This document shows, piece after piece, positions 9,590-48,507 of a DNA stretch of 64,000 bases. The position numbers were made by a program, and so were the translations under genes. The notes under the pieces are model-generated. The model was not told the DNA's origin. It ran no database searches and worked only from the letters and a program-made list of their open reading frames with translations. How positions within the stretch are numbered: the first letter of the stretch is position 1; each line of letters opens with the position of its first letter. The DNA comes from Candidatus Heimdallarchaeota archaeon (GTDB taxonomy: Archaea; Asgardarchaeota; Heimdallarchaeia; Hodarchaeales; Hodarchaeaceae). The DNA lies in assembly GCA_019057635.1 (NCBI GenBank), contig DXJL01000066.1, forward strand, positions 1-64,000, read 5' to 3'.

Positions 9590-10072
9590 GTGGTTAGAAT
9601 GCTAGAAAAATATGGTATATATTGTTATAAGGTGAAAAAAGGCCAAGAGTTCAATGCCGCAGAATCATTAGCACAATATGCTGATGTTCATCGTTTCGAT
9701 ATAAATACAGTTCTTGTTACTGAGATTCAAGGGTACCTGTTCATTGAGGGGAATATTCAAGACATTTTAAAAGCAGTTGATAATGTTCATTATGTCAGTA
9801 AACAGTTGGGTCGTGTTCCAATTTCTGAATTAGAAAATCAGTTGGTTCCTACTCCAGTAATAGAAGGATTAAAACCAGGAGATATAGTCGAAATCACAGA
9901 AGGGCCCTTCAAAGGGAGTCAAGCGCGAATTTCTTCTATTTATCAAGCTCGTGAGGAGATTACAGTTGATTTATTAACCAGTAGTGTTACAATTCCAATA
10001 GTACTTCATGCTGATTCTGTAAAATTAATCCAACCGAGTGAAGAAGAGGACGAGACTGAACTTGAGTTATAA
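9590..10072 (+). CDS. spt5: Transcription elongation factor Spt5/NusG
   Basis: NGN domain (GQE, GYLFIE) plus KOW (GDIVEITEGPFKG). Confidence 0.92.
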   Translation: MVRMLEKYGIYCYKVKKGQEFNAAESLAQYADVHRFDINTVLVTEIQGYLFIEGNIQDILKAVDNVHYVSKQLGRVPISELENQLVPTPVIEGLKPGDIVEITEGPFKGSQARISSIYQAREEITVDLLTSSVTIPIVLHADSVKLIQPSEEEDETELEL

Positions 10073-10188
10073 CTGTGTCTAACTACTAGAGCCTAACTTA
10101 TTAATCGTGAATAAAGGAAGCCTAGACGAAGAAGACATTCTGCAGGAGTCTCGATACTTCGAGTTCTAACTGCTAAATTAGCGAAAGT

Positions 10189-11121
10189 GTGTTGAATATT
10201 ATGGCTATCTCAATAACAAAAACAAAAAGCGGGTTGACTAGAAAAGAAGCCCAAATTGAGACTATTAAAAAATTAACAGAAGAGAATTCGGTCATAGGTA
10301 TTGCTGATTTGAGTGGAATAAGTTCTAAAGCTATTCAGGGAATAAGAACCTCTTTAAGATCAGGAGAGGTTAATGCAACACTTAAAGTGGCAAAAAATAC
10401 TTTGAAAACAATTGCTTTGGAAAAACTTCAAGCAAAAACAAGTAAAAAAGCTGTAGATCAATTTCTCTCTCATATCAATGGTTCTTGTGCGTTAATTTTT
10501 TCTAATGAGAGTCCTTTTAAACTACAGCGCTTTTTAAGTAAAAACTCTGTTCCTGCTCCTGCGAAAGCGGGCCAAATATCTCCTGTAGAAGTATTAATCC
10601 CCGAAGGAGTAACTAATCTCGATCCAGGACCAATTATCAGTGAACTAGGATCGATTGGATTAAAAACAAGAATTGAAAAAGGTAAAATACGAATCACAAA
10701 GACAGCCAAAGTTCTTTCTGTTGGAGATACCGTATCTGAAACTCATGCAGCTGTGCTTACAAGGCTTGGTATTCAACCATTCAGCGTAAACTTGCGAATA
10801 AGTCAAGTAATCGAGGGCGATGAAGTAATCGATGGGAGCATCCTTGAAGTTGACGAGGATCAAATCATTTCCGATCTACAACAAGCCTACATGAATGCAA
10901 TGGCGTTAGCGATTGATTCACGTGTGAATTATTATTCAGAAGAATCTATTCCGATTTTATTAGGGAATGCGGTACGTCAAGCTTTTGGATTATCTATTGA
11001 GTCAAATTATCTAACCAAAGACAATCTCAATGCTCTACTTGCAAAAACAAAAGCTCAAGCAGATACTTTGAAAGAAAAAGTCTCTGATAAGGATTCAAAA
11101 ATCGAATTCAAAGATTACTAA
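10189..11121 (+). CDS. rpl10: 50S ribosomal protein uL10 (P0)
   Basis: KVAKNTL, PAPAKAGQISP, TNLDPGPIISEL, KGKIRI. Confidence 0.93.
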   Translation: MLNIMAISITKTKSGLTRKEAQIETIKKLTEENSVIGIADLSGISSKAIQGIRTSLRSGEVNATLKVAKNTLKTIALEKLQAKTSKKAVDQFLSHINGSCALIFSNESPFKLQRFLSKNSVPAPAKAGQISPVEVLIPEGVTNLDPGPIISELGSIGLKTRIEKGKIRITKTAKVLSVGDTVSETHAAVLTRLGIQPFSVNLRISQVIEGDEVIDGSILEVDEDQIISDLQQAYMNAMALAIDSRVNYYSEESIPILLGNAVRQAFGLSIESNYLTKDNLNALLAKTKAQADTLKEKVSDKDSKIEFKDY

Positions 11122-21080: not shown

Positions 21081-21998
21081 TCAAAGCCTTGAAAGGATTC
21101 CCGCGACTAAAAGTGGAAGAACAAGGGTGACATCACCCATAATATCAATCCATTTAGCATCGGATGTCACTTTCCCCCATGATACGGCTTCTTTTATGGA
21201 AGCGCCGCTCACACCACCATGTTCGGGTCGATCCATCGTAATTTGTATTGCATAACTTAGTCCATCATGTAATTGAGACCCGTTCATGATGAAGTGTTTT
21301 GGAACGCCACCCCCAAGAATCATTGCTCCCATTTTTTTCGAATCATAAATTATCTCTGAAAATTCAGTGTGATCTTTCAATACATCAATATTTAAAGGTT
21401 TAATTTGCGAAAAAAGCCAAGATTGGACACCTAACATACTGTCAGCAAATGACGGGGCAAAAATTGGGATTTCTTTCTCATGTGCTAATCTGACAATTGA
21501 ATTTGGATCAGTGACATATCGTCCAATTTCATAGATAAATCGGCGTGTACTCATCGGTTCCTTAGGAATATTATCTAAAATTTTCTGAACTAATTTCTCA
21601 AATTTTACAAAGGATTCATACGAAATAAAAGTATCAAAAATTCTACTAACATCGAGTTCTTTAAGTTTTATATCATCAAGTTGACTATTTCCATGGAAAT
21701 GTGATCCTCCTGAAGTTTCCAATAGATCATGGCTTAGATTTGCACCAGTAGTGACAATACAATCAATTATCTTGTTGTCTATCATTTTATACAGGATATT
21801 TCGCATTCCACCAGGTATGAGAGCGCCAGCGAGACCTAAAAATATGGTACAAGATTTATCCTCAATCATTTCCAAAAAAAGATCAGTAGCGAGTCCAACC
21901 TTTCGACATGTAAATCCTCCATTTTTCATAGAATCTAAAAGTTCAGAGACACTCATATTTGGATTAATGTCTACCTGTTTCATTTTGTGTAGTTTCAT
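21081..21998 (-). CDS. dys: Deoxyhypusine synthase
   Basis: IVTTGANLSHD, RIFD, LGGGVPKH, GGVSGASIKEAVSWGK (catalytic Lys present). Confidence 0.95.
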   Translation of the reverse strand: MKLHKMKQVDINPNMSVSELLDSMKNGGFTCRKVGLATDLFLEMIEDKSCTIFLGLAGALIPGGMRNILYKMIDNKIIDCIVTTGANLSHDLLETSGGSHFHGNSQLDDIKLKELDVSRIFDTFISYESFVKFEKLVQKILDNIPKEPMSTRRFIYEIGRYVTDPNSIVRLAHEKEIPIFAPSFADSMLGVQSWLFSQIKPLNIDVLKDHTEFSEIIYDSKKMGAMILGGGVPKHFIMNGSQLHDGLSYAIQITMDRPEHGGVSGASIKEAVSWGKVTSDAKWIDIMGDVTLVLPLLVAGILSRL

Positions 21999-33827: not shown

Positions 33828-34145
33828 ATGAGTTCCGATTTTAAAGGCTGGTCTAACCTACCCAAATCAGTTAAACTGTTAGATATATCAATCATTAGTT
33901 ACGGAATTTTACTTATCATTTCAATTTCATTATATTTTTTCTTTCTTGATCAAACTGTGCAGAATCTCATGCCAATATTTCTTGTGGCGATACTTCTGAT
34001 ATTTACATGGAATTTTCGTTCCCAGCTGCTCTCTCTATCAAAGCAGGAAGTCCAAAAGCGACATTTCCGTGAGTGGTTAATAATTTCTACAATTATAATT
34101 CTTCTTTTCGTACTACTCATACTCATTTATCCAGTAACTTATTAG
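33828..34145 (+). CDS. DAD1/Ost2-like oligosaccharyltransferase subunit
   Basis: LPKSVKLLD ~ DAD1 TPQRLKLLD; NFRSQL ~ CLRIQI; KRHFREWLIISTII ~ ERAFADFLFASTIL; 3 TMs; 105 aa. Confidence 0.7.
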   Translation: MSSDFKGWSNLPKSVKLLDISIISYGILLIISISLYFFFLDQTVQNLMPIFLVAILLIFTWNFRSQLLSLSKQEVQKRHFREWLIISTIIILLFVLLILIYPVTY

Positions 34146-34210: not shown

Positions 34211-34283
34211 TCACTTATGATGAAGTTATCCCCGAAGGAGTTGTATTAACAACGATGAACTCAAGAAGAGCCGTCTGAAGTGA
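34211..34283 (+). ncRNA. C/D box guide sRNA (dual guide) targeting the 23S rRNA peptidyl-transferase centre
   Basis: Terminal stem TCACT/AGTGA, box C ATGATGA (34217), guide AGTTATCCCCGA, D' AGGA, hairpin GTTGT-ATTA-ACAAC, C' CGATGA, guide ending AAGAAGAGCCGT, box D CTGA (34275). Confidence 0.85.
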
Positions 34284-34327
34284 TTATCATTGATTATGCT
34301 TTTTTTACTAAAGGAGTACGACTTATT

Positions 34328-34597
34328 ATGAAGATGGATTTAATGGATATACTAGCTTGCCCAATCTGCAAGAATGAAGAACTTAAGCTCATTATTATTG
34401 AAAAAGATAAAGAAGAAGTTGAAACAGGTCTGATTACTTGTAATAAATGTTCCAGATATTATCCTATCAAGAAAACCATACCAATCATGCTTCCTGATGA
34501 TTTACGAGATATGGAAGAAGATAGAAATTTCTTGTTTACAAATAAAGAAAAGATTCCAGATGAGATATTAAAAAACGGAAAGCCTGTATCACTTTGA
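34328..34597 (+). CDS. trm112: Trm112-like methyltransferase activator
   Basis: LMDILACPICK..L.L....G.I.C.KC.RYYPI...IPIML; start moved to ATG 34328, which follows an AAGGAG SD. Confidence 0.88.
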   Translation: MKMDLMDILACPICKNEELKLIIIEKDKEEVETGLITCNKCSRYYPIKKTIPIMLPDDLRDMEEDRNFLFTNKEKIPDEILKNGKPVSL

Positions 34598-34869: not shown

Positions 34870-36933
34870 TCATTTCGTAAGTAAGTTCCTTAGCTCAATT
34901 AAAACTTTATCAATCTCGTTGTTTGCTTTTCTAAGTTTATTATCATAATCGATTTTTAACTTAGCATAAGCTTCTTTTCCAATCCGACCTTGAGTTTTCT
35001 TCTTCTCTAATGACTCAATATTAATCAAGTAATCTTCTCTACTCGCCTCAGCAACTTCAATTGATCGCATAGACAACCGTATACGAGGATTTTCCTCAGC
35101 AAGTTTGCGAGAAACAGAGACAATAGTCCGATCATTCTGTTGCTGTTGATTTCGGAGAATAATTTTTGTCTGCTCATATTCTCGGGCACTAATATTTTTT
35201 GATTTTCGTTTGCGATCCAATCTTAGTATCTGTTCGCGAATTGCTGTCTTCTCTTCATACGATTTAACGAAACTTTTAATCAAATCTAGTGGTATTTCTT
35301 CAAGTACGAGTTTTGAGGGTTTATATCCAAATGAAAGGTTTCTAACAAGAGCGTATGCTAGACCAATTAATAAAAAGAATAATGAAAAAGAGATTGGAGT
35401 ATAAAGTTGGTTTAATGGACTTATTCCATATTCTATTCTAATTTGCTTATTACTAAGCGGGGTTAATTCTTCAAAACTTAACTTATATCCTCTACTATTA
35501 AATAGACCTAAGAATTGTTTTTTCTGAATAGCTGAAACAGAAACGGGACTTCTCAATGAACTTTCAAATGTTGCATCCATAATTTTTGTTCTGGATATGG
35601 ATGATCCAAATGGGAATAGTAATTCAAGATCGTACTCTTGAATTGTACAATTGAAGCTTGTTGACAGATCAGTTAATAGTTGTACTTTTCCCCCGCCGAG
35701 ATTGTTAATAACCTTAGTCGATGGTTGTGTGAACGAGAGTAGGAGATGATACTCTGCACCTTGTTCTATCTGGACTCTTGGTCTAAACTCAATTACTTTT
35801 TTCTGTGTTACTGGATCTGCATCTACAATTGGAGTGATATTTCCGTAGTTATCTTTAACTCCAATTTTACTCGCAGAATCTGGGACGTTAAATGATAATG
35901 TAGGAAAAGTCGTTCCTCCAAGTGCGGTTGATAGGACAGGTCCAGATTGTAATCCTATATTTTTTAGACGTATTTCTTGCGTGGTGAACACTTTTCCCCA
36001 CTCCGATACTTCAATAGTGGTCACCAAAGAAGTGAATGTCATAAAAGTTCCAGCAACCTGGAAATAGTCAAATGTCAAATTCTCTGTTAAATTATGAGCA
36101 ATATTCGGTTTGTAGGAAGGAATAAAGTTCCGATTTGCAAGAGCTGTAAGATTATAGTTACCATGTTCAGATTGATTTAGAACTTCCCGATTAATTGATG
36201 ATAATTCTTGAATTTCCTCGTAACGAAGAGTAGTTAATTCTTGATTAATATTTCCAGTAAAATTTGTTTCTGTTGGCCTTAATGATTCATTATTTATATT
36301 AATACTAATATCTTTTCCTACCATCCATTTTAAAGTGTAAGAAGTAATGGGAATGGTAAGTAAAGGTAAAAAACTTAAATTAAAATGGTAAGGATATTCC
36401 GACTCCACAAGTTCATCGTTTTGATCATAAGTTATGGCGTTCGGATGATCCATATCCATAATTAGAGTGACTGTCTCCTCAGAACCGACTGAAGGAAATT
36501 TTATAACAATTTCTGTTGTTTGATTTCCAATGTGAACATCATATGCTGTGTTTTCAGTCTCTGTATCATTCTGTGAGTAAATTTTGAAATACTTGGAGCT
36601 ATTATACTCATTTGTTGGAAGAATATAATTTAAAGCGTTGATTTCAGTGGAACTATTGCTTGATATCTGAATCTCTGTTCTAGATGAAGTATATCCATAT
36701 TGGTTTGCAGTTATTGTTCGATCTACATTAATTAGATGACTTGTGTTAGTAAATTCAGTAACATCGAAATACATTAAATCTGTGATGTTTAAATTACTGT
36801 TTTTTGTGTTCACTGAATCGGTGCTCGAACTCGCCTCACCAGCGTTAACTTGGGGATTAGCGATCAAGAATGTCGAAGTAATAACTATGGCGAGTAGTAA
36901 AAAACGCAAACCATTTCCTAAGATTTTCTTCAT
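34870..36933 (-). CDS. Ribophorin I (Ost1/RPN1) homolog
   Basis: Signal peptide, IEVSEWGKV (~IEVSHWGNI), KDNYGNI (~RDEIGNV), EFRPR, single TM, cytosolic helical tail. Confidence 0.8.
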   Translation of the reverse strand: MKKILGNGLRFLLLAIVITSTFLIANPQVNAGEASSSTDSVNTKNSNLNITDLMYFDVTEFTNTSHLINVDRTITANQYGYTSSRTEIQISSNSSTEINALNYILPTNEYNSSKYFKIYSQNDTETENTAYDVHIGNQTTEIVIKFPSVGSEETVTLIMDMDHPNAITYDQNDELVESEYPYHFNLSFLPLLTIPITSYTLKWMVGKDISININNESLRPTETNFTGNINQELTTLRYEEIQELSSINREVLNQSEHGNYNLTALANRNFIPSYKPNIAHNLTENLTFDYFQVAGTFMTFTSLVTTIEVSEWGKVFTTQEIRLKNIGLQSGPVLSTALGGTTFPTLSFNVPDSASKIGVKDNYGNITPIVDADPVTQKKVIEFRPRVQIEQGAEYHLLLSFTQPSTKVINNLGGGKVQLLTDLSTSFNCTIQEYDLELLFPFGSSISRTKIMDATFESSLRSPVSVSAIQKKQFLGLFNSRGYKLSFEELTPLSNKQIRIEYGISPLNQLYTPISFSLFFLLIGLAYALVRNLSFGYKPSKLVLEEIPLDLIKSFVKSYEEKTAIREQILRLDRKRKSKNISAREYEQTKIILRNQQQQNDRTIVSVSRKLAEENPRIRLSMRSIEVAEASREDYLINIESLEKKKTQGRIGKEAYAKLKIDYDNKLRKANNEIDKVLIELRNLLTK

Positions 36934-48204: not shown

Positions 48205-48507
48205 CTATTCAATATATTCAAGAATCTTTGAATTTCCTGGATCCAAGATGGCGATTGTTGATACTTTGTGTGGACGTCCACATACGGCCCCCAACTCTTT
48301 TCCACTCTTTTCATATGAAATTATTGGTATTTTTGAAAGCTCACAGTTTCTTTTCAATTCTTCTGCAATATTGCCCGGTAAATTGCTTGAAACAATCGTA
48401 GCTTTTACTTTCCCATTTAATACGCTTTTTATCACATCATTGTAACCCATTCTTACTTTTCCTGTACTCATTGCCATATTTATAGCTTTTTCTATATCTG
48501 GTTTCAT
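48205..48507 (-). CDS. rpl30e: 50S ribosomal protein eL30
   Basis: TGKVRMG, ELGAVCGRPH, ILDPGNS; start taken at MKPDIEK. Confidence 0.93.
   Translation of the reverse strand: MKPDIEKAINMAMSTGKVRMGYNDVIKSVLNGKVKATIVSSNLPGNIAEELKRNCELSKIPIISYEKSGKELGAVCGRPHKVSTIAILDPGNSKILEYIE

Follow-up and report, generated by a model that had tools for sequence, protein, structure and literature searches.

The question that this locus raises is what is encoded in a 182-nt gap between a 105-aa and an 89-aa open reading frame (ORF) of an Asgard archaeon. The gap lies in the window analysed here, i.e., the whole stretch of 64,000 nucleotides (positions 1 to 64,000 of the forward strand) of contig DXJL01000066.1 of Candidatus Heimdallarchaeota archaeon (assembly GCA_019057635.1, family Hodarchaeaceae). 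Box C/D guide RNAs are catalogued in thermophilic archaea and eukaryotes. A sequence-only reading of the window had assigned positions 34211–34283 to a small RNA (sRNA) of this class with two guides against the peptidyl-transferase centre. The analysis presented here points to a gene for an archaeal box C/D sRNA with two guides, and this RNA most likely directs 2'-O-methylation at the equivalents of E. coli G2446 and C2510 of the 23S rRNA.

A complete dual-guide box C/D architecture was read on the plus strand at 34211–34283. The 5' half of the terminal stem, TCACT (34211–34215), pairs with the 3' half, AGTGA (34279–34283), and box C, ATGATGA (34217–34223), follows one nucleotide 3' of the former. 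Then come the 12-nt D' guide spacer AGTTATCCCCGA (34224–34235) with its invariant core GTTATCCCCG (34225–34234), box D' AGGA (34236–34239), the constant part of which is GA alone, and an internal 5-bp hairpin, GTTGT-ATTA-ACAAC (34240–34253), located between D' and C'. The element is completed by box C' ATGAACT (34255–34261), the 13-nt D guide spacer (34262–34274) with the core GAAGAGCCGT at 34265–34274, and box D CTGA (34275–34278).

All motifs and coordinates of the sequence-only reading proved correct, and the register of box C', placed there as CGATGA at 34253–34258, was refined. A kink-turn consists of a stem, three bulged nucleotides and tandem G–A pairs. Since xTGA alone is constant across 17 species, and given this geometry, we read box C' as ATGAACT and the D spacer as 13 nt rather than 16 nt long. 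This register is structurally consistent with the hairpin as the canonical stem, G/A/T-A-T as the bulge, and the GA of C' paired with the GA of D'. With such a stem, the internal C'/D' motif would be a kink-turn and not a kink-loop.

The same element was present in syntenic Asgard loci, where the sequence-only reading had proposed to look for it. A DNA search detected it in 18 of the 21 other genomes of the genus at 80–98% identity over ~55–86 nt, and a covariance model recovered the same 18 genomes. The alignment comprised 17 full copies, namely that of the window genome and 16 others; the copies of G027 and G021 and the second copy of G028 were excluded from it. In all 17 copies, TGATGA of box C, GTTATCCCCG, the GA of D', the hairpin stem GTTG/CAAC, the TGA of C', GAAGAGCCGT, CTGA and AGTG are invariant. 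The variable positions are nt 34224 after box C, nt 34235 before D', the first two positions of D', the hairpin loop, and the nucleotides between the TGA of C' and the D guide core, including the 3 nt before the core. Box C conforms to RTGATGA in every copy (ATGATGA in 13, GTGATGA in 4), and the spacer between C and D' measures 12 nt in 16 of the 17. Box D' reads ATGA (8 copies), CAGA (3), AGGA (2), TTGA (2), CTGA (1) or AAGA (1), and box C' reads ATGA in 16 copies and GTGA in one, preceded by G, A or T. Frozen boxes and guides joined by free linkers represent the pattern predicted for a trans-acting guide RNA.

The two stems are also maintained. Over the 17 species, 84.7% of the cells of the terminal stem are paired, with G–U pairs and one double change, and 96.5% of those of the hairpin, with one compensatory change from U–A to G–C in G005. 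Taken together, 90.6% of the cells are paired and two pairs are changed on both sides. RNAalifold independently recovered the internal hairpin and did not recover the terminal stem. For comparison, the identity of the flanking proteins over the genus ranges from 52 to 97% for the upstream 105-aa protein and from 58 to 100% for Trm112. The comparison of these sequences settles that the element is a real box C/D guide RNA gene, genus-wide.

The guides point to the peptidyl-transferase centre. Nine nucleotides of the D guide can pair without mismatch with GAUGU-CGGCUCUUC-CUA in the 23S rRNA of two genomes of the genus (G005 and G008) and in three further 23S genes of the class (L007–L009), and 11 nt of the D' guide can pair with CGGGGAUAACU in the full-length 23S rRNA gene on contig C57 of G001 (L006). 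When the guides were shuffled, the observed match was reached in 3 of 2000 cases for D' (11 nt) and in 54 of 2000 for D (9 nt). In rrlH of E. coli MG1655, CGGGGAUAAC occupies positions 2443–2452 and GAUGUCGGCUC positions 2502–2512. By the N+5 rule, the target nucleotide pairs with the fifth guide nucleotide upstream of D' or D (2021 review of archaeal C/D sRNA conservation). For the D' guide, this is C34231, opposite the third G of CGGGGAUAAC (E. coli G2446), and for the D guide, it is G34270, opposite the C of CGG[C]UCUUC (E. coli C2510). The motifs and the two nucleotides named in the sequence-only reading were thus confirmed on MG1655 rrlH. Both N+5 positions form Watson–Crick pairs (C–G and G–C), and complementarity of at least 9 nt that includes this pair is observed on same-genus and same-class 23S rRNA. 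In domain V, 64 nt separate the two targets, and the region around helices 90–93 of this domain is a known hotspot of archaeal methylation (the same review and a paper).

The protein machinery expected for such an RNA is present. Fibrillarin (270.5 bits) and Nop5 (226 bits) are encoded side by side on contig C82, and there are two genes of the L7Ae family (89.1 and 63.2 bits), the 63.2-bit one lying inside the window at 48220–48495 (−). Moreover, a second canonical dual-guide box C/D sRNA was found on the minus strand of contig C20 (28616–28669 of the reverse-complemented contig). It has a 7-bp terminal stem, and its guides match the same-genus 23S rRNA L010 over 10 and 11 nt, at two sites separated by 33 nt. 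A second sRNA with both guides matching 23S rRNA indicates that the C/D guide system is in use.

From these data, we infer that the element is transcribed, processed, assembled into a ribonucleoprotein (RNP) and used for methylation. A look for RNA runs of this DNA yielded none among 23 runs, which is neutral as to expression. The box C/D pair, closed by the 5-bp terminal stem, and the C'/D' pair, closed by the hairpin, would fold into one kink-turn each, and both kink-turns would recruit L7Ae first, followed by Nop5 and fibrillarin. Base pairing with 23S rRNA would take place at CGGGGAUAAC through the 12-nt D' spacer and at CGGCUCUUC through the 13-nt D spacer. Fibrillarin would then 2'-O-methylate the rRNA nucleotide opposite the fifth guide nucleotide counted upstream from D' and from D, respectively. 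Given the short distance between the targets in domain V, the RNP is also likely to aid the folding of this part of the rRNA during ribosome assembly, as proposed for other archaeal double guides.

Several observations weigh against the assignment of a methylation guide. The 23S rRNA of the window genome is not assembled except for two orphan 3'-end fragments, and the complementarity is known from relatives only; a search of the window genome for guide targets returned the sRNA itself and coincidences in coding regions. The D duplex has just 9 bp, with a U–U mismatch at N+1. In G005 (L010), the D' target reads GGGGGUAAC within CGGGGGUAAC, which allows 10 bp with one G–U pair. G001:C57 has CGUCUCUUC at the D site, i.e., a mismatch beside the target nucleotide; the membership of this contig in the genus is doubtful, since the guides of the C20 sRNA match only 6 and 8 nt there versus 10 and 11 nt in L010. 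Boxes C' and D' are degenerate with respect to the consensus, of which only GA is kept, and the D spacer measures 13 nt in all 17 copies in the kink-turn register (16 nt in that of the sequence-only reading) compared with the canonical 12 nt. Three genomes of the genus (71–86% complete) gave no copy in the DNA search. The G027 copy is disrupted and lacks box C and half of the D' guide, the G021 copy is disrupted and lacks the end of the D guide and box D, and box C is degenerate in one of the two copies of G028.

The general statistics are no more favourable. A strict architecture scan (RTGATGA, 11–13 nt, NNGA, 3–35 nt, NTGANNN, 11–13 nt, CTGA, closed by a terminal stem of 4 bp or more) matched the 3.19-Mb genome at 2 sites and the reversed genome at 1. 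The predicted fold has an energy of −17.2 kcal/mol with a z-score of −1.5, and 16 of 200 shuffles were equally stable. The architecture alone is therefore weak evidence, no more than chance would give, and it is the conservation together with the guide matches that is decisive.

Some of these points bear on how the RNP would act. It could be mainly or only a chaperone of rRNA folding that pairs with both halves of the peptidyl-transferase centre during assembly and transfers few or no methyl groups to one or both of its targets. Targets 64 nt apart in domain V agree with this, as such a pattern has been linked to a chaperone role of archaeal double guides (2021 review), the 13-nt D spacer and the degenerate C'/D' could reduce catalytic efficiency, and conserved guide–target pairings without methylation have been discussed for Pyrobaculum (PMC6009581). 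Meanwhile, the N+5 pairs are Watson–Crick, box D and the GA dinucleotides that place fibrillarin are invariant, and eukaryotes methylate the same two nucleotides, which makes a chaperone with little or no methylation improbable.

The 23S rRNA genes of the relatives have a peculiarity of their own. In the genus and the class, their peptidyl-transferase region contains insertions, namely a 44-nt inserted hairpin that follows ...GCTCACAT at ~1575–1620 of L010 (G005:C44), a ~330-nt insertion near GGGAACGUGA/GCUGGGUUUAGACCG in G008:C8, and an interruption right at GGGGAU/AAC, the target site of the D' guide, in the genomes of family f3 (L008 and L009). These insertions probably explain why 23S rRNA is missing or fragmented in these metagenome-assembled genomes (MAGs). 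The two orphan fragments of the window genome (G000) lie outside the window on contig C70, as stand-alone copies of the 23S 3' domain of ~300–400 nt, at 9865–10270 and 21508–21917 (−), which score 162 and 200 bits with the LSU_rRNA_archaea model and are 86% identical to each other and ~81% identical to same-genus 23S rRNA. Similar orphan fragments (model positions 2721–2973) occur in G001, G002, G003, G008 and G011. A dispersed repeat family of 50–165 nt with 73–87% identity is also found on C70 (207–307, 3184–3340, 9884–9935, 12052–12103, 13367–13421, 16440–16579, 18906–19054 and 21455–21652), and its copies abut both rRNA-like fragments. The rRNA-like motif matches on C65 and C165 were not confirmed by BLAST with the 23S rRNA of relatives and were discarded. 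Finally, L114 (G006:C310) is a 23S fragment of bacterial type (…GGCUCAUCGCAUCCUGGGGCUG…) in an Asgard bin and is probably a contamination.

Carriers of both guides were also sought beyond the genus. One genome per species (185,579 species) was scanned for exact matches to the D' guide core followed, after 22–52 nt, by the D guide core and box D. The scan gave 21 records, namely 17 Asgard MAGs, all with box C, and 4 bacterial matches, all without box C, which were rejected as chance. The Asgard MAGs are labelled Hodarchaeota, Heimdallarchaeota or Promethearchaeota and include Candidatus Hodarchaeum mangrovi; the B3_Heim record is 98% identical to the window at the element. The gene order of the genus is common to 16 of the 17. 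The remaining record, L107, comes from a genome of another family and class (G280); its boxes and both of its guides are those of the element, and its D spacer measures 12 nt. An unrelated, GC-rich hairpin of 7 bp occupies the place between D' and C'; according to our reading of the ORFs, the gene lies between a CorA-like and a hemerythrin-like one.

The covariance model (R1) found no copy in the 62 genomes of the class outside the genus, a result that is a lower bound, as the model had an effective sequence number of 2 and stricter filters and missed the G280 homologue that the exact patterns found. Over the covariance and exact-pattern searches together, the two-guide combination was found in one genus and one distant Asgard genome only. 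Single guides recur in other Asgard sRNAs. In family f24, an sRNA present in three of the four genomes (L133–L135 in G286, G289 and G290) carries the C2510 guide in the D' position, AGGAAGAGCCGT-CTGA, together with a different D guide, and in family f10, one genome (L148 in G087) has an sRNA with the G2446 guide in the D position, AGTTATCCCCGC-CTGA, and a different D' guide. These extra-genus searches required exact matches, and the counts are lower bounds. Six of the seven extra-genus matches to box C with the D' guide fell in coding-like sequence without the remaining boxes, and all eight matches outside f24 to the D guide with its box had no box C; they were attributed to chance, and their frequency is that of a reversed-pattern control, which gave 16 matches in 268 genomes. 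The guides scattered and shuffled among Asgard families indicate that both sites are old or recurrent Asgard targets, and do not indicate that the two-guide RNA of the window is the ancestor.

The gene context is the basis of another interpretation. Upstream of the element lies the ORF of a predicted membrane protein of 105 aa (33828–34145, +), and downstream lies trm112 (34328–34597, +), which encodes an 89-aa zinc-ribbon methyltransferase activator (Pfam Trm112p, 35.3 bits, cut-off 22). Thus, trm112 had been named correctly in the sequence-only reading, and the label of its other neighbour, DAD1-like, was unsupported by Pfam: the 105-aa protein matches no Pfam family at E ≤ 0.01 and gives weak transporter-like noise only, up to E = 10. 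In the window, the start codon of trm112 is located 49 nt past box D on the same strand. The synteny is observed over the genus: trm112 is downstream in every locus of the genus examined, with its ATG 9–52 nt past box D, and tblastn found the 105-aa gene upstream in 14 of the 16 full-copy genus loci, or in 14 of the 18 loci L017–L034. The exceptions are G028 (L024), G027 (L033), G021 (L034) and a near-duplicate of G021. The gene order of the genus is a 440-aa gene (−), the 105-aa gene (+), the sRNA (+), trm112 (+) and a 687-aa gene (−), and the exception is the rearranged G028 locus with its two inverted copies of the element. With box D only 9–52 nt before the trm112 start, the sRNA may share a transcript with trm112 or with the upstream gene. 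A run of seven T at 34300–34306 (+), 17 nt past the terminal stem, is a possible archaeal termination signal; it is missing in species whose trm112 begins 9 nt after box D.

Given this arrangement, the element could act in cis, as a kink-turn leader on the trm112 mRNA or as a trailer of the gene upstream, where the binding of L7Ae would control translation or stability. It is always on the trm112 strand and at the short distance from the start codon given above, and L7Ae on mRNA kink-turns has been proposed as a means of archaeal translational control (PMC5539422). For such a leader, though, kink-turns would suffice, and yet the spacers, which match 23S rRNA, are the most strictly conserved parts of the element; furthermore, L107 keeps both guides in an unrelated gene context. 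We therefore consider a solely cis-acting element highly improbable; a dual role, as guide and cis-acting leader, may exist. As for a functionless chance assembly of motifs in an AT-rich intergenic region, with which the scan counts, the fold z-score and the lack of an Rfam match at the gathering threshold would agree, it can be dismissed as next to impossible in view of the 80–98% identity in 18 of the 21 congeneric genomes, the restriction of variation to non-functional positions, and the outcome of the 185,579-species scan, in which 17 Asgard records had box C and the 4 bacterial ones did not.

The box C/D guide RNA supported by these results resembles the archaeal dual-guide sRNAs of Sulfolobus, Pyrococcus, Pyrobaculum and Methanocaldococcus in its box C (RUGAUGA), box D (CUGA), terminal stem and internal D'/C', as well as in having two predicted guide spacers, which measure ~12 nt in those RNAs, nearby targets on the same rRNA and the domain V hotspot. 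A short loop between D' and C' is typical of those RNAs. The element differs from them in its D'–C' hairpin of 4–5 bp, its 13-nt D spacer and the reduction of C'/D' to a GA core. Its host belongs to an Asgard lineage of mesophilic sediment with very few detectable sRNAs (2 by the strict scan).

At the gathering threshold, Rfam found two tRNAs alone in the window and no match at the sRNA site, so that the element is uncatalogued, as had been claimed; it should be noted that the same search on C70, C65 and C165 gave 0 matches despite the LSU fragment present there. The archaeal sR families of Rfam gave noise only (sR38 with 13.7 bits and sR35 with 8.7 bits), and their guides differ. Among the eukaryotic models, snoR38 (RF00213), which we take to be the family that holds yeast snR38 and human SNORD1, scored 15.5 bits (E 3.3–9.5) against a gathering score of 45, with the boxes and the guide alone aligned. 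SNORD49 (RF00277) scored 8.4–10.1 bits (E 6.1) against 37, with the guide in the opposite half of the RNA, and Plasmodium snoR28 and nematode ceN22 (RF01604 and RF01622) scored 17.6 and 12.2 bits against cut-offs of 63 and 45; in these models, too, the alignment is confined to boxes and guides. The Infernal comparison with the snR38 and SNORD49 models, which the sequence-only reading had regarded as a check of its proposal, gave no match at the gathering score, and the idea that the element is a candidate ancestor of these families of small nucleolar RNAs (snoRNAs) could not be upheld, given scores so far under threshold and the presence of the same guides in different Asgard sRNAs.

The eukaryotic counterparts of the target sites, on the other hand, were named correctly. 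Yeast snR38 guides 25S Gm2815 (PMC5027498), and human SNORD49A/B are assigned to 28S Cm4456, formerly Cm4426 (PMC9941101); on the Rfam consensus guides of snoR38 and SNORD49, the N+5 rule picks the same G and the same C as the element does. Like the element, the snoR38 family has its guide upstream of the internal D' box. Its consensus AGUUAUCCCUG before an internal CUGA is near-identical to AGUUAUCCCCG of the element and selects the same G of GGGAUAAC. Unlike the element, RNAs of the snR38 family are single-guide, longer and, in yeast, intronic, and they do not align with it outside the boxes and the guide. The consensus of SNORD49, snoR28 and ceN22, GGAAGUGCCGU (GGAAG(U/A)GCCGU), precedes an internal D-type box and selects the same C of CGGCUCUUC. 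In these eukaryotic families, this guide is in the 5' half before D', whereas in the element it is the 3' (D) guide, and the eukaryotic SNORD49-type consensus has U where the element has a perfectly pairing A. In architecture, the f24 sRNA, which carries its C2510 guide before D', resembles SNORD49 more closely than the element does.

Guides for the same universally conserved rRNA must look alike, and their similarity cannot separate common descent from convergence. It is unlikely, in our estimate, that both guide modules are true orthologues of the snR38/SNORD1 and SNORD49 guides and that the methylation of G2446 and C2510 was RNA-guided already in the Asgard ancestor of eukaryotes. If this were the case, double-guide archaeal sRNAs would have been split into single-guide snoRNAs during eukaryogenesis, and the shuffled guides in at least four Asgard families (f1, f21, f24 and f10) would be a trace of an ancient modular repertoire.

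No description of an Asgard C/D sRNA was found in the literature searched, which was covered mostly at the level of titles and abstracts. In PMC8339473, the term sRNA occurs in the reference list alone, and the 2021 review of archaeal C/D sRNA conservation contains no occurrence of Asgard, Lokiarch- or Heimdall-. The element provides a concrete example of a C/D sRNA conserved genus-wide in Hodarchaeales, both predicted targets of which coincide with sites 2'-O-methylated in eukaryotes, and a seed for sRNA annotation in Asgard genomes, where Rfam finds none. One proposal places Hodarchaeales as sister to eukaryotes (PMC10307638), and this position has been disputed (PMC12222021). Strains of this order have been cultured and their transcriptomes reported (10.1101/2025.02.26.640444), with sRNA, snoRNA and fibrillarin unmentioned in the consulted part of that report. 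As cultures and transcriptomes exist, it can be tested directly whether rRNA modification is continuous from Asgard archaea to eukaryotes.

One further gene of the locus should be mentioned. The 687-aa protein encoded in the window at 34870–36933 (−) has no Pfam family above threshold (DUF7152 at 16.8 bits). It has a signal-like N-terminus, many N-x-S/T motifs, a C-terminal membrane segment and a charged, coiled-coil-like tail, and its gene adjoins trm112 throughout the genus.

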